64,000 bases of DNA from Candidatus Thorarchaeota archaeon. GTDB lineage: Archaea > Asgardarchaeota > Thorarchaeia > Thorarchaeales > Thorarchaeaceae. Positions 2,045 to 46,675 of the stretch are shown in pieces (the stretch's first letter is position 1; each line of letters starts with the position of its first letter). A model generated the notes under the pieces. That model saw only the letters and a list, made by a program, of their open reading frames with translations. It made no database searches and was not told where the DNA came from. The stretch is from NCBI GenBank assembly GCA_048882045.1, contig JBHLRZ010000002.1, positions 128,001 through 192,000 of the forward strand, in the 5' to 3' direction. The position numbers and the translations under genes were made by a program.

Positions 2045-2070
2045 CGAATAAGAAAAATGGTAGCGGGTAG
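2045..2070 (-). repeat. tRNA-iMet 3'-end copy 1 (att-like), 26-bp direct repeat
   Basis: CGAATAAGAAAAATGGTAGCGGGTAG is identical to 2422-2447; core TGGTAGCGGGT equals the tRNA 3' end at 3162-3172. Confidence 0.88.
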
Positions 2071-2123
2071 CGAAACAAGAATAGCAAAATTCAACTCAGA
2101 TTCATCACGTATTTCCACCACCA

Positions 2124-2447
2124 ATGCAAATCTTTGATCCTGCAACTGGCATAGTTGCAATCCTCGCTGGAGTAATACTCTCCTCGCTCATTGGTGGATT
2201 GTGTCTTAGGTATGTCTACAGAAACTCAGACCATTTGTTTGTTGGTGTAATGATAATCATCTTGGGATCTTTTGGGGTCTTCTGTACTCTATTTGCATGG
2301 TCGTATATATTCTCACATGTAGATTCATTCCTCCCTATAGGAGCTAGAATGACAATCCTCGGATTGGTAGTTCTACTTCCAATAGCCATCGGATTTGTTA
2401 CTACATCGGGTTTCAATAGAACGAATAAGAAAAATGGTAGCGGGTAG
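2124..2447 (+). CDS. Hypothetical 3-TM membrane protein (cassette cargo)
   Basis: 107-aa hydrophobic ORF between the repeats; its stop codon lies inside repeat copy 2. Confidence 0.65.
   Translation: MQIFDPATGIVAILAGVILSSLIGGLCLRYVYRNSDHLFVGVMIIILGSFGVFCTLFAWSYIFSHVDSFLPIGARMTILGLVVLLPIAIGFVTTSGFNRTNKKNGSG
2422..2447 (-). repeat. tRNA-iMet 3'-end copy 2 (att-like)
   Basis: Exact copy of 2045-2070. Confidence 0.88.
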
Positions 2448-2600
2448 TTTGAAAGGCAAGCTTCTTGACTGCCTTAGTAAAGTAATGGTCTTGAAAGATT
2501 AATATGGTTAGAATTATCAGATGATACTAGGGCATGCAGGACTAAGGAATCTAGCAACAAATTTGATGTCTTTATACAGAATCGTGGAGGAGGATTATTC

Positions 2601-3113
2601 ATAGTTGAAGGCAAAGATGAGCAGCTAGAGAAAGAGCTCTATGACCCGATAATAGCAGTGCTCAGAGAACGCTTTAGTGAAAAAGGTAAGTGCATATTAG
2701 ACACAACCGATCGACTCTTACATACTGATAATAGGATAAATCTAGATAATGTGGCACTTCTGTCCCTTAGCGTTGAGAGAAAGTTCCCTGATCTGATAGG
2801 ATGTCTTGACATCAGTGAAACGATATTTTCAGAGGAAAGTAGACTGATTGTGGTAGAAATAAAGAGAGGAGTTTTGACTCTTGGGGATTTATACCAAGTA
2901 AAGATGTATGCTGAAGTACTTCAGGCTTACTACGCGATTCTGATATCTCCTAGTGGGTTTCAGAGAGAACAAAGAAAGGCCATTATCGAAATTCCCGAAC
3001 TACTCAACTTTTGTGCTCAGGAATATGATCGTCAGATTGTAGTGATGTATTGGAGAGAAAATACTCTTGAAATAGATGAGGAATTATATTATGAGGACCC
3101 ATTAGAAACTTAA
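2601..3113 (+). CDS. PD-(D/E)xK restriction-endonuclease-like protein (cassette cargo); start 2601 (ATA) or 2658 (GTG)
   Basis: EKELYDPI...FPDLIG...IVVEIK...DLYQVKMY motifs; GGAGGAGG at 2586-2593. Confidence 0.7.
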   Translation: MVEGKDEQLEKELYDPIIAVLRERFSEKGKCILDTTDRLLHTDNRINLDNVALLSLSVERKFPDLIGCLDISETIFSEESRLIVVEIKRGVLTLGDLYQVKMYAEVLQAYYAILISPSGFQREQRKAIIEIPELLNFCAQEYDRQIVVMYWRENTLEIDEELYYEDPLET

Positions 3114-3161
3114 TTCCTTATCAGTTGAGATAATGTAGAGGGGTGAAATGAAAAGAAGAAG

Positions 3162-3303
3162 TGGTAGCGGGTGGAGGATTTGAACCTCCGATCTCGGGGT
3201 TTCCGAAGCGGGAGCTCAAAGCGTCATCGCTTTATGAGCCCCGCGGGATAGGCTTCACCCACGTGCGGACGAATCCACACAGGACTGGCTTCCCCAACCC
3301 GCT
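3162..3303 (-). tRNA. tRNA-iMet(CAT) with a D-loop intron (~3254-3284) and a canonical 37/38 intron (3201-3232); CCA encoded
   Basis: After intron removal: AGCGGGT TG GGGA AGCCAGGCCTA TCCC G CGGGG CT CAT AA CCCCG AGATC GGAGG TTCAAAT CCTCC ACCCGCT A CCA; A1-U72 and consecutive G-C anticodon-stem pairs indicate initiator. Confidence 0.92.
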
Positions 3304-10834: not shown

Positions 10835-10930
10835 TAGGTTTCAGACTATGTCTGAACCTATACCATTTCCTTTGTGTTGGCGGATACGTCCGCACGGGAT
10901 GTGGCCCTAGGGGCTGAACCACAAACAAAG
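10835..10930 (+). promoter_or_regulatory. Structured 5' leader of rpl15e (eL15 r-leader-like, K-turn-like motif)
   Basis: TAGGTTTCAGAC/GTCTGAACCTA hairpin; CTTTGT...ACAAAG closes GCGGA-TACG-TCCGC and GGGATGTGGCCCTAGGGGCTGAACC. Confidence 0.65.
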
Positions 10931-38158: not shown

Positions 38159-39541
38159 ATGACACAGAAATTGTTTGGCACATCCGGAATTAGAGGCTCA
38201 ATCATAGAGAAATCTACTCCTGATCTTGCTCTTGGACTTGGTAGAGCACTCGGATCTTTTCTTGATGGAAAAGGAACTGTAGGAGTAGGTACTGACGCTC
38301 GAACTTCACGAGAAGTACTAAGAAATGTCTTCGTCGGAGGAGTGCTCTCGACGGGAGTCCAAGTTGTAGACCTGGGGATAGCGCCAATGCCGACAGTCGC
38401 ATACTTCAGCGCATTCGATGACATCTCCGTTTCAGTCATCATCACTGCAAGTCACAATCCGCCAACAGACAATGGTTTCAAGTTCTTCAGTAGCGGAAGA
38501 GAGTTCATTCGATCTGAGGAGGAATTCTTGGAGAACTCCGTCTTCAATAAGCAGTACCTTTCTGCACCATGGGATAAGATTGGTCAATTATCAAAACGGG
38601 ACATCAAAATCGAATACCTCTCTAGCGTCAAGGAGTTCCTGTTGAAGAGAGGAGGTATCAGTTTGGGGACCAAAGTTCTCGTTGATTTGGCAAATGGAGC
38701 AGCTACTGAATATACCCCGACACTTCTCTCAGATTTGGGATTCTCTGTCACAACAATGAACTCTCATCAAGACGGACATTTCCCTGGAAGGCTTCCTGAA
38801 CCATCTCCAAGGAACTTGGGAGACGCTATGAAGATGGCTGCTGAGTCTGATTTTGCAGTGACTATGTGCCACGATGGTGATGGTGATAGACTAGCTGTGA
38901 TTGATGAGGAAGGAGAATTCATAGACCAGAACCGTGTCATTGCAGTCTTTGCTCGAGATGAGGTCGAGAGGAAAGGAGGCGGCGTGGTACTCACATCAAT
39001 CGACACTTCCAGTGTAATAGATGAGATTGTCAATGCTGCAGGAGGATCAGTCGTACGTATGCCACTCGGGTCACTTCAGGAGTATCTTGCTACAAAAGAT
39101 TGCAAGGATGTCGTACTAGGTTCAGAGCCTTGGAAACCGATCTTCACTGACCTTGGATTGTGGATGGATGGTATAACTGGCGCTGGTCGATTTGCTCAAC
39201 TGGTGGATGAGCTTGGTGATGGTAGCTGTATCAAGCTCATGAAAACGATACCAAAGTATCCCATTCTGAGGGACTTTGTTCCTTGTCCTGACAAAATTAA
39301 GCAGGCATTCTTACCACACGTGAAAGAGAAGCTTGTTCCAGCCATCAGTGGTGTTGAGAATGTCCTAGAAGTGGATGGAATAAGAATCGATTACAAGGAT
39401 GGATCGTATGTGTTGATCAGGGTTTCAGGAACAGAACCTAAAGCAAGACTGTATGTGGGAGCGAAGTCACAGCAAACTCTAGAAAAGACTGCTGACATTG
39501 CAAAGAAGATAATGGAACAAGCTCTGGACGAACTCAAGTGA
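38159..39541 (+). CDS. Phosphohexomutase (PGM/PMM/GlmM family)
   Basis: FGTSGIRG, TASHNP, DGDGDR, RVSGTEP. Confidence 0.92.
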   Translation: MTQKLFGTSGIRGSIIEKSTPDLALGLGRALGSFLDGKGTVGVGTDARTSREVLRNVFVGGVLSTGVQVVDLGIAPMPTVAYFSAFDDISVSVIITASHNPPTDNGFKFFSSGREFIRSEEEFLENSVFNKQYLSAPWDKIGQLSKRDIKIEYLSSVKEFLLKRGGISLGTKVLVDLANGAATEYTPTLLSDLGFSVTTMNSHQDGHFPGRLPEPSPRNLGDAMKMAAESDFAVTMCHDGDGDRLAVIDEEGEFIDQNRVIAVFARDEVERKGGGVVLTSIDTSSVIDEIVNAAGGSVVRMPLGSLQEYLATKDCKDVVLGSEPWKPIFTDLGLWMDGITGAGRFAQLVDELGDGSCIKLMKTIPKYPILRDFVPCPDKIKQAFLPHVKEKLVPAISGVENVLEVDGIRIDYKDGSYVLIRVSGTEPKARLYVGAKSQQTLEKTADIAKKIMEQALDELK

Positions 39542-39542
39542 G

Positions 39543-40160
39543 TTGACTGTCTTGACTATAATCCAAATTCTAGCTATCTGTGGAATGGTTAGCCCAATCA
39601 TATACACAATAATGTGGATCCTTGGGGGAATACTTGATCCAGAATATAGTCATGTAAGACAGGATGTCAGCTCTCTAATTGCAGTCAAAGCACCTAACAA
39701 GAAGCTTCTTGACAAATTCATCATCACATCCAGTATTCTCTTGTTGATTTTCTATCTTGGGTTGTTTTGGGGAATAAACAATGGAACTGGTTCAATCATT
39801 GGTCCTATCCTGTTTACAATCAGTGGACTCCTAGGGGTTCTTGTGGCTCTCTTCTTCCCCCTTGATACAGGTGGTGAAATGGTTACAACGCGTGGGAAAC
39901 TACATCTGATTCTCATTTCACTATCAGGAATATTGACAATTGCAGGTATGCTTGCTCTTTGGTTTGATTTAGCTGTTGACACTGTTTGGGGTACCTTTGC
40001 TACTTTTTCTCTGATTTCAGCAATATTGTCCCTCATCCTTGTGATAGCTACTTCATTTGCTACCAAAACCAATTACCTTGGATTGATAGAGAGGTTGATG
40101 GTCAGCACCTACCAAATCTACTACTTTGTATTTGCTCTGATGGTATTTCTGACTAACTAG
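39543..40160 (+). CDS. DUF998 membrane protein
   Basis: P.YSHVRQDVSSL, GL.ERL, multiple TM helices. Confidence 0.78.
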   Translation: MTVLTIIQILAICGMVSPIIYTIMWILGGILDPEYSHVRQDVSSLIAVKAPNKKLLDKFIITSSILLLIFYLGLFWGINNGTGSIIGPILFTISGLLGVLVALFFPLDTGGEMVTTRGKLHLILISLSGILTIAGMLALWFDLAVDTVWGTFATFSLISAILSLILVIATSFATKTNYLGLIERLMVSTYQIYYFVFALMVFLTN

Positions 40161-41427
40161 GGACACCCATTCCTGCGTACTCAAGCCAACTCTCCATCAA
40201 CTGTCTAGACTTCTTCCCAAACTTCTCTTGAATCAGATTAAGAAACGTGTCTGATGTGATAGAGTCGCTCTGTATGCAAGTTCTAGCAAACTCTCCTATA
40301 CCTTCTCTGAACTCTGTTATTCCCACAGATTCAGAAACCTCATGCAACAGAAGAAATCCTCTGAAATAGAAAGCTGCATGGGATTCCTCCTGTTCTCGAA
40401 CAAGTTCTCTGATTGCAGGCAAATCTCCTGCTTTCTCAAGCTGCTCTCTCACCTTAGCGGTATGGGATGAGAGAAAATCTTCTCTGACATAATCATTGAC
40501 AATGTGTATTGAGCAGAACTCTGCCAAGGCCTCGTCAACCCAGTTGTCGTAGGTCAATGGTGATGTTCTATTAAACCACTCATGACATATCTCATGACAA
40601 ATGGCTTGTAGAACTGCATTGTGTGAGCTCGATGTTGTCGGATAGCCCCCTCCAACCACAACCATTCCTGATCTGGTGTATGCCCCTCCCTGTTGCCGTG
40701 GAGTTATCACAAATTTCAACGGAATGTTTGTGCTTGGTGGGCCTAGCCATTCTTCCAACAATCTCCTCATTTCGTAGATGTGTCTGTCAAACCTCTTCTG
40801 TGACGACACCATGCTCTTGGGTCCCCAGAAGAAGCTGTCAGAATCGATTTGTGTATCTCTGATTGGTAATCCCACGAGTGTGATATCATTTGCTTGGCGG
40901 GTCTGATTCCATGTCCAAACAGAGTGCTTCTTGGATGGTTCGGTACCTACTTTTTTCCCATTTGCTATCCATGTCCAGTCGGAAGGACTGTTCAGAGTAA
41001 CATTGTAAGACATGTAGGTTTCCATGCTAAGTGGTACTGGGTACCAGGCACTATAACAGGCCAATTCGACAAAATCTCTCTTGATGTACCCCATTGTTGG
41101 CATTCCAGTGTTATTTTTCGGCGGATGTATCTGCCCAGAATATTCGAACTGAATCACCATGTCCTGGTCCCTTTCAATTTCTGAGTCTGCTTCGAACGCC
41201 CATAGATCTCCATTGTAGAACCGAGGGATCTTCATCTCATCTGTTTGATACAGTTTCACAGGACTACTCATTTCTATGATACGTTGTGGAACACCTTTCC
41301 ATTTTAGTCCACGATTCAATACGAAGAGGAACTTTTTTTGTGGCTCCGAAATTCGGACTTCGCCTCTCACTCCGAGCATTCCCTTTCTAGGATCAATCCT
41401 ACAGTTGAGAATGTAGTGAGCACACAT
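40153..41427 (-). CDS. M1-like (gluzincin) metallopeptidase
   Basis: HEICHEW...WVDEALAEF; YFRG. Confidence 0.82.
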   Translation of the reverse strand: MCAHYILNCRIDPRKGMLGVRGEVRISEPQKKFLFVLNRGLKWKGVPQRIIEMSSPVKLYQTDEMKIPRFYNGDLWAFEADSEIERDQDMVIQFEYSGQIHPPKNNTGMPTMGYIKRDFVELACYSAWYPVPLSMETYMSYNVTLNSPSDWTWIANGKKVGTEPSKKHSVWTWNQTRQANDITLVGLPIRDTQIDSDSFFWGPKSMVSSQKRFDRHIYEMRRLLEEWLGPPSTNIPLKFVITPRQQGGAYTRSGMVVVGGGYPTTSSSHNAVLQAICHEICHEWFNRTSPLTYDNWVDEALAEFCSIHIVNDYVREDFLSSHTAKVREQLEKAGDLPAIRELVREQEESHAAFYFRGFLLLHEVSESVGITEFREGIGEFARTCIQSDSITSDTFLNLIQEKFGKKSRQLMESWLEYAGMGVPS

Positions 41428-41546: not shown

Positions 41547-42818
41547 ATGAAAGAAGTGTGGTTGGTTGACTATGTTCGTACTCCATTTTCACGTTCACGT
41601 CCCAATAAACCAGAAACTGACGTATTTGGTGAGATTAGGGGTGACGAGCTCTTAGCTCGACTACTAATGAAATTCTTCGATGGATCATTGGCTGAAAAAG
41701 GAATTGAAAAGAAAGATATTGATGAGGTCACAGTAGGTGTGGCTTCTGGTGTCCTTGAGAACTGGACATATGGGGGAAAAATCCCCACTTTCCTGTCTGG
41801 GTTTCCATATGATGTACCATCAATGTTCATTGACCGCCAGTGTGGGTCAGCAGGTTCAGGAATGCACATTGGCATCATGGAAATCATGACTGGGTTCAGT
41901 ACAACCGTGCTGTCCACTGGTTTCGAGCACATGACTCGAGTGAGGGGAACCGGAATCGATCCAAATTTCTCCATGGCTGATAAAAACTCGGAGTTTTACA
42001 GACCCGGCTTTGATGCAGCTACAGTGTTCAACATGTTACAAACTGCCCAGAAATTGTACGAGGAAGAGGTCCCCACATTTACCAAGGAGGACATGGACAA
42101 GTTCGGTGTGAGAAGTCATAATTTGACCATCAAGAACCAAGAGAATGGATGGTTCAAAGGTGAAATAATCCCCATGGAGGGACATGCACCTGATAATGTT
42201 GACGAACCTATGATGATTGACAGAGACCTGAGTGCCCGACCATCGACCCTTGAGAAGGTTTCAACTCTTCCTAGGGTTTCAACACCGTTCTTCTTGGAGA
42301 AGAATGGGGGAAAAGAGGGTTACATCAAACGCGAGGGTACAGATGAGGGTGTAATCACTCCAGGCAACGCCTCTCCGTTAAATGCAGGTGCAACTGCTGC
42401 TGTTCTAATGGAGGCTGAGGAGGCCAAAAAGAGGGGCATAGAACCCATGGCAAAAATTGTTTCCATGGGGTGGGCAGGAGTTGATCCGACTGTCATGGGC
42501 CGTGGACCCGTTCCTGCGACCATCAAGGCTCTCAAGTATGCTGGATTAAGTGTTGAGGATATTGACTTCTGGGAAATCAATGAGGCATTCTGCATTGTCG
42601 CACTCAACTGCATGGACAAACTGAAGATTCCCGAAGAGAAGGTAAATGTCAACGGTGGTTCTACTGCCATTGGACATCCTCTAGGTTCGACCATGATCAG
42701 GTTGACTGGAACACTGGCAAGAATTCTCAAAGACAACAAGGCAAAGTATGGTGTTGCCAATGCGTGTGTTGGCGGTGGACAGGGTGTTGCCACCGTTATT
42801 GAGAATCTTGATGCATAA
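41547..42818 (+). CDS. Thiolase (acetyl-CoA acyltransferase)
   Basis: DRQCGS, EINEAF, GHPLG, CVGGGQG. Confidence 0.95.
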   Translation: MKEVWLVDYVRTPFSRSRPNKPETDVFGEIRGDELLARLLMKFFDGSLAEKGIEKKDIDEVTVGVASGVLENWTYGGKIPTFLSGFPYDVPSMFIDRQCGSAGSGMHIGIMEIMTGFSTTVLSTGFEHMTRVRGTGIDPNFSMADKNSEFYRPGFDAATVFNMLQTAQKLYEEEVPTFTKEDMDKFGVRSHNLTIKNQENGWFKGEIIPMEGHAPDNVDEPMMIDRDLSARPSTLEKVSTLPRVSTPFFLEKNGGKEGYIKREGTDEGVITPGNASPLNAGATAAVLMEAEEAKKRGIEPMAKIVSMGWAGVDPTVMGRGPVPATIKALKYAGLSVEDIDFWEINEAFCIVALNCMDKLKIPEEKVNVNGGSTAIGHPLGSTMIRLTGTLARILKDNKAKYGVANACVGGGQGVATVIENLDA

Positions 42819-42867
42819 TATAGTCTTCAAAGAATTTCACAAGAATGAGGGTACTAGGGAGCAGATC

Positions 42868-43653
42868 CTAGCTGATTCTGTATCTTGCCACTTCAGGATG
42901 ATCTAGAAACTCCCAACTACCATTAACTCCTTCAACAAGAGCACCCAACTCAACATGCAGCATCGCAATACCACAATCAAGCTCTCTTGAAACCCGAAAA
43001 TTTCTCCTTGTACTATCGGTTGATACAGTAATCGAGTCCGCATTGACTGAGAATCTCCACGGTTGTCTATTTCCGGCAGAGGGTGCAATCCTAGCCGCTT
43101 CTAATGCAGTCTTAGCCCAATCACTACTCACTTCACCCGCTATAATGAACTTACTTAGATCCTTTCGTCTATACTGTTTTGAAGACACGCCTACTCTGTC
43201 AGTGTCATCCTTCGAATATCCAATTGGTGTGATACCAAGAACCTTCTCACTGCTTATCAGATTGATTTGTTTAGCAACTTCTTCAGGTCTATAGAAACCT
43301 CCTACCCAACAAGTATTCAAGCCAAGAGCAGTGGCTTCAAGAATTACTCCTTCTCCAAGATATCCTGTAACTGCCTGAACATTAGGCACCTCCATATCAC
43401 CAATGAATGCGATATAGTACGGTGTTTCTGTCACTTTGTAGAAGAACTCACTCACTGCGCCTTTGAACACTCTTTCTCTTGGATTTCTAACCAGAACAGC
43501 TTTGGCTCCGGAATATGGTCTGAATTTGTTACAGATTTCTTCAATTCTAGAGGTCACATCATCACTTGGAACTTCGCCAGAATACTTTCTCTGTGAATGT
43601 CGAAGGAAAATTGCTTTGTACCAGGAATCTATAGGAATGTCCAAGATTGTCAC
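42868..43653 (-). CDS. Nitroreductase family protein
   Basis: RHSQRKY, LGLNTCWVGG, APSAGNRQPW, LDCGIAMLH. Confidence 0.9.
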   Translation of the reverse strand: MTILDIPIDSWYKAIFLRHSQRKYSGEVPSDDVTSRIEEICNKFRPYSGAKAVLVRNPRERVFKGAVSEFFYKVTETPYYIAFIGDMEVPNVQAVTGYLGEGVILEATALGLNTCWVGGFYRPEEVAKQINLISSEKVLGITPIGYSKDDTDRVGVSSKQYRRKDLSKFIIAGEVSSDWAKTALEAARIAPSAGNRQPWRFSVNADSITVSTDSTRRNFRVSRELDCGIAMLHVELGALVEGVNGSWEFLDHPEVARYRIS

Positions 43654-43711: not shown

Positions 43712-43733
43712 TGGCGCAGGGGATTAGATTTGA
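43712..43733 (-). repeat. Degenerate tRNA-Ser 3'-end copy (att-like)
   Basis: TGGCGCAGGGGATTAGATTTGA vs spliced tRNA end TGGCGCCGAGGATGAGATTTGA (19/22). Confidence 0.65.
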
Positions 43734-43868
43734 CTTATATGATGGTTCCAACCCTCAAAGAATGTTTTTAATTTGTTAAACTAGCTCGTGATCACTCATT
43801 CAATTTATGCACACATATGTTCCCAGAACTATAGGACTGAGCGCATCATTCATGATCTTAGGGTTTCA

Positions 43869-44393
43869 CTATTCTTTGTCGGGATTAGGGTTGCCCTGTT
43901 CACTTTGAACTGGAGAATGGTATCCAAGCTTTTTGAGAGTTTTATATAGAAACTTGCTGGAGTCGAGTGATTCTGATGATCTCCAACGCTTTGCGAAATC
44001 TGCCTGAATAGGTTCAATCTTCTCCCACCATGCCATTGTCATTACTGCCATCGCTTCAGGTATTAGTTCTGCATCAGTAATCTTGTCTTCAATCAGCTTT
44101 CCCATCGAGTCAAAAAAGGAGCTAACATGAATGAACTTTGCCCAATTCTTCGAATTTCCAGTTGGTCCATATTTTGCCATGAACTGTTCAAAGTTGCTCC
44201 AGTTCCACTCCCCAACTACTTCGAACATATCCTCAAGGAACTTTTGGTCCGCCTGTTTATGAAAATCCAGGAATATAGATGCGCGTCTTGACTTCGCTAA
44301 ATTTCTAATAGAAAGTACACTCATGATCACTCCTATCACGACGCTCATTGCGGCTAGTATTATCGAAACAGTTTGTACATCTAACTCCTGCAT
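43869..44393 (-). CDS. DUF4760-like membrane-anchored protein (cassette cargo)
   Basis: N-terminal TM, F..KYGP, FFDSMGKLI, WWEKIEP; TATA-like element at 44421-44429. Confidence 0.65.
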   Translation of the reverse strand: MQELDVQTVSIILAAMSVVIGVIMSVLSIRNLAKSRRASIFLDFHKQADQKFLEDMFEVVGEWNWSNFEQFMAKYGPTGNSKNWAKFIHVSSFFDSMGKLIEDKITDAELIPEAMAVMTMAWWEKIEPIQADFAKRWRSSESLDSSKFLYKTLKKLGYHSPVQSEQGNPNPDKE

Positions 44394-44494
44394 GAGTATC
44401 GCCCCGAATCTCTTGTTTAATTTCACAGGACGATTCTCCCATATAAAAGACCTATCCAATTTTTGAGCCGATTGCGATATTCTCGAGCAATTTG

Positions 44495-44522
44495 AAAATG
44501 GTGCCGAGGATGAGATTAGAAC
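44495..44522 (-). repeat. tRNA-Ser 3'-end copy (att-like)
   Basis: AAAATGGTGCCGAGGATGAGATT matches 45150-45172 at 22/23 and continues AGAAC like the intron-less T-loop. Confidence 0.88.
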
Positions 44523-44572
44523 AAAGCCATCATCCGAATTCAAGATAAAATTCATAATCAAGATTAATCAAG

Positions 44573-45139
44573 TTGAGAACCATGGATTTTTGGACTGGAT
44601 TAATTGCTTGTTTTGATGAGGAATCAGTCTGCAGGTTGAAGGAATTATGGAGAATTTTGACAAATTCTCCAGATTTACATGGTCAAATATATGAGCGAGT
44701 ACCACCCCACATAACATTGTTTGAACATGAAGAAATAAGAAAACAAGAATTCTATGATGCATTAGAATCCGCTATTTCGAAATACAACTCCTTTTCACTG
44801 AAATTTACTGGTTTAACTACGTTTCCTGCTACCCATGTTTTCTATCTTAATCCAGAATATTCTAACAATCTTCATTCTTTAAGAAAACTCTGCCTCGAAA
44901 TATTAGAAGATCAAGGAGTAATTTTGAATCGAAAGCCCGATAGTACGTGGAATCCACACTTGACTCTTCTATTAGACCTCCCAACTCAAGAAATATCCAA
45001 AGCAGTTGAGATTTCCCAAAATTATCTTGATTTACAGATTACAAAGCCTTTTGTCGTAAAGATATCCCATATCGAATTATTCTCTTACCCTCCCTATAAA
45101 GCTGAAAAGAAGTTCTTTCTACACAAAGCAGCTGAGTAA
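44573..45139 (+). CDS. 2H phosphoesterase (2'-5' RNA ligase family; cassette cargo)
   Basis: Two HxT motifs (PHITL, PHLTL); visibly AT-rich. Confidence 0.85.
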   Translation: MRTMDFWTGLIACFDEESVCRLKELWRILTNSPDLHGQIYERVPPHITLFEHEEIRKQEFYDALESAISKYNSFSLKFTGLTTFPATHVFYLNPEYSNNLHSLRKLCLEILEDQGVILNRKPDSTWNPHLTLLLDLPTQEISKAVEISQNYLDLQITKPFVVKISHIELFSYPPYKAEKKFFLHKAAE

Positions 45140-45153
45140 TTGGAGAAGTAAAA

Positions 45154-45302
45154 TGGCGCCGAGGATGAGATTTGCTCAATCTCGTCGGATTGACGAAACT
45201 CTTGAACTCATGCGTGCGAACACACCGGTTGGCTTGGCCTTTGGCTTCCGAAGAAACCGGTTTTCAAGACCGGCGCCGTAATCCGGGCTTGGCTACCTCG
45301 GC
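45154..45302 (-). tRNA. tRNA-Ser(TGA) with a 37/38 intron (45231-45262) and a T-loop 58/59 intron (45172-45201); CCA encoded
   Basis: GCCGAGG TA GCC AAGCCCGGATTAC GGC G CCGGT CT TGA A|A ACCGG, variable arm TGTGTTCGCACG, ATGAG TTCAA|AT CTCAT CCTCGGC G CCA; both introns form BHB motifs. Confidence 0.93.
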
Positions 45303-45373: not shown

Positions 45374-45805
45374 TTGGAGCGCGGTTTCAACTATCACGAA
45401 CATACAGCCGACATCACAATAGAATGTTGGGCTCCTGACCTCATCGGGGCTTTTGAACAGGCAGCTCTGGCAACATTTGAGGTCATTCTTGACACCTCTA
45501 CTGTGAAACCTAGTGAAACCGTTGAAATCGAGATAACTGCGACAGACCTTGAGGAGCTATTGGTGGAATGGATCGGTGAGTTGATCGCACTGATTGACAT
45601 CAAGGGACAATTCTACTCCAAATTCTCAGTGGACCATATCGAAGCCACAACAAACGGCTACATACTGGAAGGTCGAGTTCTTGGTGAAACAATTGACCAC
45701 GACAAGCATGATACCCGAACAGAGGTCAAAGCCATGACGTATGCAGACTTGAGAATTCTTGAAGAACCAAATCGAACAATCTTATGGTTCACACTTGACC
45801 TTTAG
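45374..45805 (+). CDS. Archease
   Basis: EHTADI, EVKAMTY, LDL C-terminus. Confidence 0.93.
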   Translation: MERGFNYHEHTADITIECWAPDLIGAFEQAALATFEVILDTSTVKPSETVEIEITATDLEELLVEWIGELIALIDIKGQFYSKFSVDHIEATTNGYILEGRVLGETIDHDKHDTRTEVKAMTYADLRILEEPNRTILWFTLDL

Positions 45806-45817
45806 GAGGACTAAAAA

Positions 45818-46675
45818 TTGACGCTGAGAGTTGCCATTCCTGATACTACCCTGACAGACTGCTCTGACCTACGTCAGAAGACTGTGAAATCCGGATCGAT
45901 TGCCAGGGCTCTAGCCATATTTCGGGTCAATCATGTCTTTATCTATGAAACCGGGACCCTGACTGGTAATAAGACACGGGATGCAGATTTGCTGATGAAG
46001 CTGCTCAGGTTCATGGACACACCACAGTATCTTCGAAAAAAGATATTCCCGAAATCTCCATCTCTAAAGTATGCAGGCATCCTTCCGCCTCTTAGGACAA
46101 AGAGTCATCCATTAGAACAGATGAAGTCTGATCTACATGAGGGAGTCGTGAGATGGGGGGTACAGGTCAGGCCAGGAAAGGTCGACCTTGGTCTCGATAA
46201 GCTAATCGACTATCCCCAGACCATCAGCGAACGAGACCCCACATTGTTCCGTGTGAAGAAGGCTTCGCCCAAAATCATCCTAGAGATAATCGATCGCGAG
46301 GATGTTGAAGAGTACTGGGGTTTCTCTGTTGAAAGGATTCGAGAACTACGTCTTCTGCTTGAGGCGGAAGACGATTCCACCAGGATTGGGTTCTCAAGAA
46401 AAGCGCCTCACTTTAATAGACTTGAAACTGATCTGAAATCAACCATTGCGGGGACACAATCAGTTCTGGCTATCTTTGGTGGTCCCGGACATGGCATTCT
46501 CGAAGTCTTTGAAGAGGAACGTGAAACCATCAAGTCAAACATTGACTTCTGGGTTAATACAATCCCTCATCAGGGTACTGAAACTGTTCGCCTTGATGAG
46601 GCACTATTCGTGAGTCTTGGAGTATTGAACAGTTCTCTGGGGCAGATGATGACGAAACCAGGTTTTCATGATTGA
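45818..46675 (+). CDS. SPOUT RNA methyltransferase (COG2106/DUF171)
   Basis: IARALAIFRV, TPQYLRK, AGILPPL, NTIPHQGTETVR. Confidence 0.9.
   Translation: MTLRVAIPDTTLTDCSDLRQKTVKSGSIARALAIFRVNHVFIYETGTLTGNKTRDADLLMKLLRFMDTPQYLRKKIFPKSPSLKYAGILPPLRTKSHPLEQMKSDLHEGVVRWGVQVRPGKVDLGLDKLIDYPQTISERDPTLFRVKKASPKIILEIIDREDVEEYWGFSVERIRELRLLLEAEDDSTRIGFSRKAPHFNRLETDLKSTIAGTQSVLAIFGGPGHGILEVFEEERETIKSNIDFWVNTIPHQGTETVRLDEALFVSLGVLNSSLGQMMTKPGFHD

Follow-up and report, generated by a model that had tools for sequence, protein, structure and literature searches.

Exchangeable gene modules arrayed behind tRNA-Ser(UGA) in a Thorarchaeota archaeon

The tRNA-Ser(UGA) locus and its modules

The window analyzed was a 64-kb stretch (C2:128001-192000) of G000, a 3.6-Mb, 93%-complete Thorarchaeota assembly. 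It carries on its minus strand a tRNA-Ser(UGA) gene of 149 nt with an encoded CCA (45154-45302), which anchors an array of genes behind its 3′ end. With both introns removed, the gene folded into an 87-nt cloverleaf with a UGA anticodon; it was undetected in the window by ARAGORN and Rfam because of these two introns. Elsewhere in the window, Rfam matched an eL15 ribosomal protein leader RNA (10880-10925, RF03144). The fixed upstream flank, which lies outside the array, encodes archease and a SPOUT methyltransferase (45374-46675, plus strand), and archease adjoins tRNA-Ser(UGA) orthologues in 20 loci of the genus.

The tail of the tRNA gene (tRNA positions 54-76) is repeated behind it on the same strand. 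Copy 1 (44499-44521, minus strand) is intron-less and matched the spliced tail at 21 of 23 positions, against 19/23 for the unspliced last 23 nt of the gene, and copy 2 (43712-43734, minus strand) matched the tail at 19/23. A decayed relic (42849-42871, minus strand; 11/23 to the tRNA), not significant by sequence alone, was placed by positional alignment with G014 and G001, and agreed at 15/23 with the clear copy aligned to it in G014. An initial annotation of this DNA had placed the first copy at 44495-44517; this segment does share 22/23 nt with 45150-45172 on the plus strand, but four A's of the trailer fall inside that frame. The second copy, given there as 43712-43733, was borne out. The tail repeats behind tRNA-Ser(UGA) are real and better than chance: none of 100 shuffles gave a tail match with three or fewer mismatches, and a genome-wide scan for tRNA 3′ repeats over both strands of the 3.6 Mb returned, at ≥19/23, only tRNA genes or tRNA tail copies.

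The locus as a whole is an array that collects genes behind tRNA-Ser(UGA). Each module opens with a U-rich trailer, generally carries one gene, and is closed by a copy of tRNA positions 54-76; modules measure 0.3-2 kb with conserved ends, and the units in the window hold genes and are 0.6-0.8 kb each. The genes face both directions and retain their own upstream regions. Module 1 (44522-45153; 632 bp from the tRNA CCA to copy 1) comprises the U-rich trailer and a 2H phosphoesterase gene of the LigT/2′-5′ RNA ligase superfamily (44573-45139, plus strand; PF13563, E = 2.7e-17), convergent with the tRNA and with both H-x-T motifs present. Module 2 (43735-44498), between copies 1 and 2, holds a DUF4760 gene (43869-44393, minus strand; PF15956, E = 1.2e-7) encoding 174 aa from the ATG of its orthologues. 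The arrangement of one gene per interval, with 2H proximal and DUF4760 distal to the tRNA, was as first described, and so was the AT-richness of the 2H gene (GC 35%, 0.1 percentile of genome ORFs); the GC of the DUF4760 gene was ordinary (11th percentile).

The array continues beyond these two cassettes, through the relic and four older modules. Module 3 carries a nitroreductase (42868-43653, minus strand; PF14512), followed by a thiolase (41547-42818), an M1 peptidase (40153-41427) and a DUF998 gene (39543-40160), whose repeats are eroded. The orders of these four differ among relatives and some are inverted, and the array therefore reaches about 39543. In relatives the position of the nitroreductase ranges from first or second to later in the array, and copies often flank it; the M1 peptidase follows a 22/23 copy in L227, and in run X3 DUF998 was joined directly to the tail.

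The cargo is not core or syntenic, since the 2H gene was found in only 2 of the 28 genus genomes searched and module orders vary in relatives. Homology of the 2H module with G019 spans repeat to repeat (89%, with neighboring genes at 69-82%) and stops at the repeats, and a contig of a co-occurring strain lacked module 1, 44521 being joined to 45151. Relatives of the 2H gene at 75-90% occur in other Asgard assemblies. The module precedes six different genes: DUF4760 in the window and, elsewhere, a beta-propeller protein, an ATC hydrolase, an M1 peptidase, a nitroreductase or a 117-aa gene. DUF4760 occupies the tRNA-proximal position in G011, G009, and G004, and was joined directly to the tail in a contig of run X4. 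As 2H is one of many first modules, a functional tie of 2H to archease and tRNA splicing found no support.

Several arrangements were seen alongside the array. 2H genes 76-81% identical stand without Ser tails in L223, L224, L226, and L229 (assemblies labeled Promethearchaeota or Hodarchaeota), and more distant DUF4760 paralogues are cargo of tRNA-Ala arrays bounded by Ala tails (L078 in G019, L092 in G006). An inversion of ∼70 kb lies in G000 between two Ser loci (window 39541-39543; C2:96122-98438), with one breakpoint ∼10 nt behind the CCA of Ser(CGA): in G000 phosphoglucomutase borders the far end of the Ser(UGA) array and ELP3 lies beyond Ser(CGA), while in relatives Ser(CGA) adjoins phosphoglucomutase and the Ser(UGA) array adjoins ELP3. 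In both L231 (4091-4848) and L232 (704-1461), the promoter is separated from the complete tRNA-Ser gene by an additional ORF and a decayed Ser tail.

Exchange of modules between relatives

Genomes of the genus and metagenomes supplied 41 non-redundant Ser(UGA) loci for comparison; these loci are related, so that counts overstate independence. Modules shared between hosts were 82-87% identical, against 47-67% for the archease-SPOUT flank (G022/G015b, G015b/L105, L153/L125, and G000/L225), indicating horizontal transfer with the left junction inside the tRNA gene. Modules thus very probably move as units among distant Thorarchaeota, joining within the tRNA gene and being added mostly at the proximal end, with old repeats being lost.

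Addition at the tRNA end was directly evidenced in the metagenome contig L136, where a copy starting at T54 contains a complete T-loop intron and is followed by an amidase, a copy, a nitroreductase and a membrane gene. In G015, the amidase-nitroreductase run lies directly behind the intron-bearing tRNA gene itself. As an intron outside a tRNA gene can only mark a former gene end, L136 has gained a new module in front, displacing its intron-bearing tail. Polarized serial insertion, as first proposed, therefore stands as regards tRNA-proximal addition (L136 vs. G015), but not as a strict age record. Identity, said to fall with distance from the tRNA, fell in seven successive Ser copy pairs, rose in two and tied in three (p = 0.09, pairs not independent), which makes a trend and not a strict gradient. 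A CRISPR-like record was contradicted by the Ala (23, 22, 16, 23) and Phe (20, 22) arrays of G000, which are not monotonic, and by inverted orders of old modules. Position along the array gives a rough date for a junction, and none for the cargo. A junction-by-ORF test of the gradient (rho = -0.32) was noisy and missed copy 1 of the window, and copy pairs were relied on instead. No back-joint of an excised circle was found in contigs of four runs, a kind of contig that drops rare variants.

The 5′ edge of 40 copies was sharp, with a match of 0.33 at G53, 0.72–0.82 at positions 54-56 and >0.9 at positions 57-69. The T-loop intron was present in 20 of the 41 genes, and 39 of 41 copies were intron-less. 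Hosts with a common T-loop intron carry different first modules (G022/L147, G015b/L125, L104/L169, and G001/L132/L170). The T-stem allele differed between copy and gene in G015a, G001, L225, and L231, with the gene stem still paired, which suggests a crossover position that varies, unlike a fixed 7-bp overlap. These alleles and introns suggest that most exchanges fall in the last 11–18 nt, 3′ of the T-loop intron, which leaves the host its intron, and that the donor supplied copy positions 54-65 in most of them. Rarer exchange 5′ of the intron, displacing the whole tail from T54, is suggested by L136 and less clearly by L153. The iMet array (window 2045-3303), whose copies are limited to the last 11 nt plus trailer, and the Asn copies, which match only 3′ of the Asn T-loop intron, agree with exchange 3′ of that intron. 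The archease flank showed no co-conversion; the recombining homology is therefore at most about 150 bp, ruling out long-homology recombination through archease. One match of the tail to a viral contig did not look like a tail copy.

Introns of tRNA-Ser(UGA)

The T-loop intron (58/59; 45172-45201, minus strand) is a 30-nt hairpin, and the canonical 37/38 intron (45231-45262, minus strand) is 32 nt long. The first 24 nt of the latter resemble exon positions 38-53 of intron-less alleles, with 21/24 matches in the window and 24/24 in G042 (L199), where the resemblance ends at G53, and its last 8 nt supply the splice motif. All 25 distinct 37/38 introns of tRNA-Ser(UGA) were 31–33 nt in length and matched exon 38-53 of some allele at 15–24 positions; L199, L116, and L150 were singled out for their exon-like introns. 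Judged from these alignments, the 37/38 intron appears to preserve an earlier exon 38-53 ending at G53, where displaced tails begin. This shared position points to a break or join at G53/T54, and the spot at which tails break seems to have given rise to one tRNA-Ser intron. Position 53/54 also carries an insertion in several Ala, Thr, and Ser(CGA) genes, although splice-motif constraints could favor this site.

The T-loop intron does not freeze the array, as hosts with the intron show recent copies and vary in their first module. Nor does it generally travel with the first module; it follows the host clade, being inherited with the host while the modules behind it change, and the site is therefore not frozen. 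This behavior is contrary to the simple form of the proposal of Randau and Soll, as cited in PMC3293823, that introns shield tRNA genes from insertions. For the arrival of Asgard tRNA introns, the accessible text of a 2026 preprint (10.64898/2026.10.13.758758) offers no general route and calls the question open, and that text contains no test of a self-exon route.

A candidate nuclease, alternative explanations and related systems

Searches of the 93%-complete G000 assembly returned no match for tyrosine or serine recombinases, reverse transcriptase (RT), IS110 or Cas1; for recombinases, these comprised seven family searches and a custom HMM. For IntI, neither PF00589 nor PF16795 matched in G000, and the best custom HMM hit had E = 0.56. 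The lack of an integrase, as initially reported, held near the array and in the rest of the assembly. No integrase gene or remnant was found in the window modules or in the module proteins of relatives that were scanned. A tyrosine recombinase was present in 8 of the 28 genus genomes, and none of the integrase contigs examined contained a tRNA tail. XerA-like tyrosine recombinases were absent from G000, and from 20/28 genus genomes above cut-off, in assemblies that are incomplete. The lack of a XerA-like recombinase is unusual for archaea.

The first module repeatedly encodes an HTH-HNH protein (∼328 aa) that combines HTH repeats with a pair of Zn-binding HNH-like domains. One lineage occupies this place in seven Ser(UGA) loci of relatives, and its seven Ser(UGA)-docked full-length members were monophyletic (support 99/95). 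Counted by eye, ∼21 of the 26 HTH-HNH loci of the genus lie ≤400 bp from a tRNA gene, involving at least eight tRNA species. The Zn cysteines and histidines were invariant, and the nuclease domain was modeled with a pLDDT of 91; its best fold matches were HNH nucleases, all weak and none at E ≤ 0.001, the top one being T5 SciA (Z 5.0, rmsd 4.4 over 72 residues). The Pfam HNH match of the family fell below cut-off, and full-length fold searches gave mainly HTH matches. The family is possibly the enzyme behind the array, its cleavage activity being putative. Its Ser lineage was absent from G000, where the sole homologue sits at tRNA-Val, so that the Ser array is without an engine there at present.

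Nuclease-carrying Ser loci had a T-loop intron in five of eight cases, against 20/41 overall, and introns at 53/54 were found in 5/5 docked Ala and Thr(CGU) genes, which represent few independent events. Self-protection was not consistent, as three nuclease-docked Ser genes had no T-loop intron and L123 had no intron of any kind. In L259 (1183-2521, G015), a tRNA-Leu(CAA) gene with a T-loop intron, an HTH-HNH gene and an intron-less tail copy from T54 stand together, an arrangement predicted to be the minimal autonomous unit. In L246 (709-2564, G006), an HTH-HNH gene lies between the 5′ part of a tRNA-Thr(UGU) gene and a complete tRNA-Thr gene, and in L047 (1702-4612, G015) the nuclease module also has genes for a TIR-domain protein and an OLD-like ATPase, which are typical of anti-phage defense. 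A sigma-70 promoter scan was uninformative for an archaeon.

The explanation favored here, plausible though still short of probable, is that the HTH-HNH family breaks the tRNA gene at G53/T54 and that the break is repaired through the short tail repeats, with no integrase needed. It is favored because it accommodates the sharp T54 edge, the variable crossover, the exon-derived intron, the lack of a recombinase and the tRNA-docked nuclease. The docked nuclease would act in cis at the birth of a module end and in trans for later breaks; repair would draw on DNA entering from a relative, which would pair with the tRNA gene and with the 23-nt copy. Later loss of the nuclease gene would leave cargo-only modules, as in the window, and misaligned repair at the same break could turn exon 38-53 into the 37/38 intron. 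The nearest precedent is phage SegB, which cleaves tRNA genes internally and thereby drives the formation of repeats (PMC13096335). The T54 boundary is also the classic T-loop signature of integrases (PMC4383910), and since cargo lineages are site-faithful too, monophyly of the nucleases is no proof of an engine role. More tentatively, integrase-free gene capture may be at work in Thorarchaeota, with G53/T54 breaks by tRNA-specific HTH-HNH nucleases and tail-repeat repair stacking one-gene modules and turning exon 38-53 into a canonical intron; if true, Asgard tRNA introns would have a way to arise and spread at the level of DNA.

Two other explanations, both rather unlikely, share part of this evidence. 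Tyrosine integrases acting in trans from passing elements could have built the array by tandem accretion of the CIME/tycheposon type with a T-loop crossover, the modules being decayed or minimal att-bounded elements. The copies are indeed direct 3′ fragments running from T loop to CCA, as in tDNA islands, proximal addition with distal decay fits the tycheposon model, and a minority of genus genomes do encode some tyrosine recombinase. Yet G000 and the scanned module proteins lack an integrase, the integrase contigs examined lack tails, exchange mostly 3′ of the T loop is joined by exchange 5′ of the intron in L136, and a conservative crossover fails to explain the duplication of exon 38-53. 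Host recombination alone, by RadA or microhomology repair after DNA uptake, would swap modules via the conserved tRNA gene and tail copies, with the HNH gene as short-lived selfish cargo, and it fits the variable crossover and the lack of a dedicated enzyme in G000 equally well. It would have to work within the short homology set by the unconverted archease flank, and on its own it leaves unexplained the T54 position of new module ends in several tRNAs, the G53 end of the retained exon and the near-exclusive location of the nuclease family against tRNA genes.

Insertion templated by RNA, in which a reverse-transcribed processed tRNA transcript yields the spliced-type copies, is highly improbable. 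The contrast between intron-less copies and intron-bearing genes would suit it, but exchange 3′ of the intron accounts for the same deficit, G000 has no RT, the copy in L136 retains the whole intron, and the intron-less 23-mer exists as DNA in tRNA-Ser(GGA) of G000 and half of its relatives. Moreover, m1A58 would place the RT stop at position 59 instead of 54. The notion that spliced-type copies imply an RNA step was rejected on the Ser(GGA) source, the L136 intron and the lack of RT.

The array works like tandem accretion at a tRNA end with an integron-like layout, and lacks what defines an integron, a CRISPR array or an integrase-bearing island. As in tandem tRNA islands (Islander, PMC4383910; CIME, PMC5704250; tycheposon, 10.1101/2020.12.28.424599), displaced direct 3′ tRNA fragments lie behind an intact, restored gene, and the newest DNA is usually tRNA-proximal, with distal decay and fixation. 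Unlike in such islands, the Ser units are only 0.3-2 kb, have conserved ends and mostly hold one gene, neither an integrase nor a remnant of one was found in the modules scanned or in G000, and modules are re-inserted in new orders. The 5′ edge is fixed at T54, but alleles and introns suggest exchanges both 3′ and 5′ of the intron. Integrons and CALINs, archaeal ones included (PMC9668308), are likewise built of single-gene units that join mostly at one end and become reordered. The likeness to integrons that was first suggested thus holds for the layout but not for the machinery: IntI is missing, the repeat is a tRNA tail whose regions fold no better than shuffles (z -1.0 to +0.6), without an attC-like hairpin, and genes face both ways with their own upstream regions. 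Compared with CRISPR arrays, units are gene-sized, their order is not conserved and no Cas1 was found in G000.

Free-standing homing endonucleases such as SegB of phages T4/T6 (PMC2988022, PMC13096335) also have a nuclease gene docked on tRNA genes, with a proposed sequence of tRNA-gene break, homology repair and repeat formation that is putative in the Ser array. The docked HTH-HNH genes, with their weak HNH fold matches, lie beside the tRNA genes of relatives and are absent at the window locus. They differ from SegB in being associated with chromosomal archaeal tRNA genes, in having multiple HTH and usually tandem HNH-like domains instead of GIY-YIG, and in a proposed outcome of cargo accretion instead of allele replacement, with nuclease activity being putative. 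The disrupted tRNA-Thr of Caldiarchaeum (PMC3293823) similarly combines intron gain and tRNA fragments at a DNA insertion site; in contrast, exchange proceeds despite the Ser T-loop intron, and the 37/38 intron resembles an exon that the gene itself once had.

No published description of these arrays was found in the literature searched, and the locus adds an intron test, an exon-derived intron and a Ser-specific nuclease clade. It implies that Asgard archaea trade individual genes with remote relatives at core RNA genes in the absence of a recognizable integrase, and makes two questions testable, namely whether introns shield tRNA genes and by what route tRNA introns reach Asgard genomes. The HTH-HNH proteins are a small family of candidate enzymes amenable to in vitro assays.
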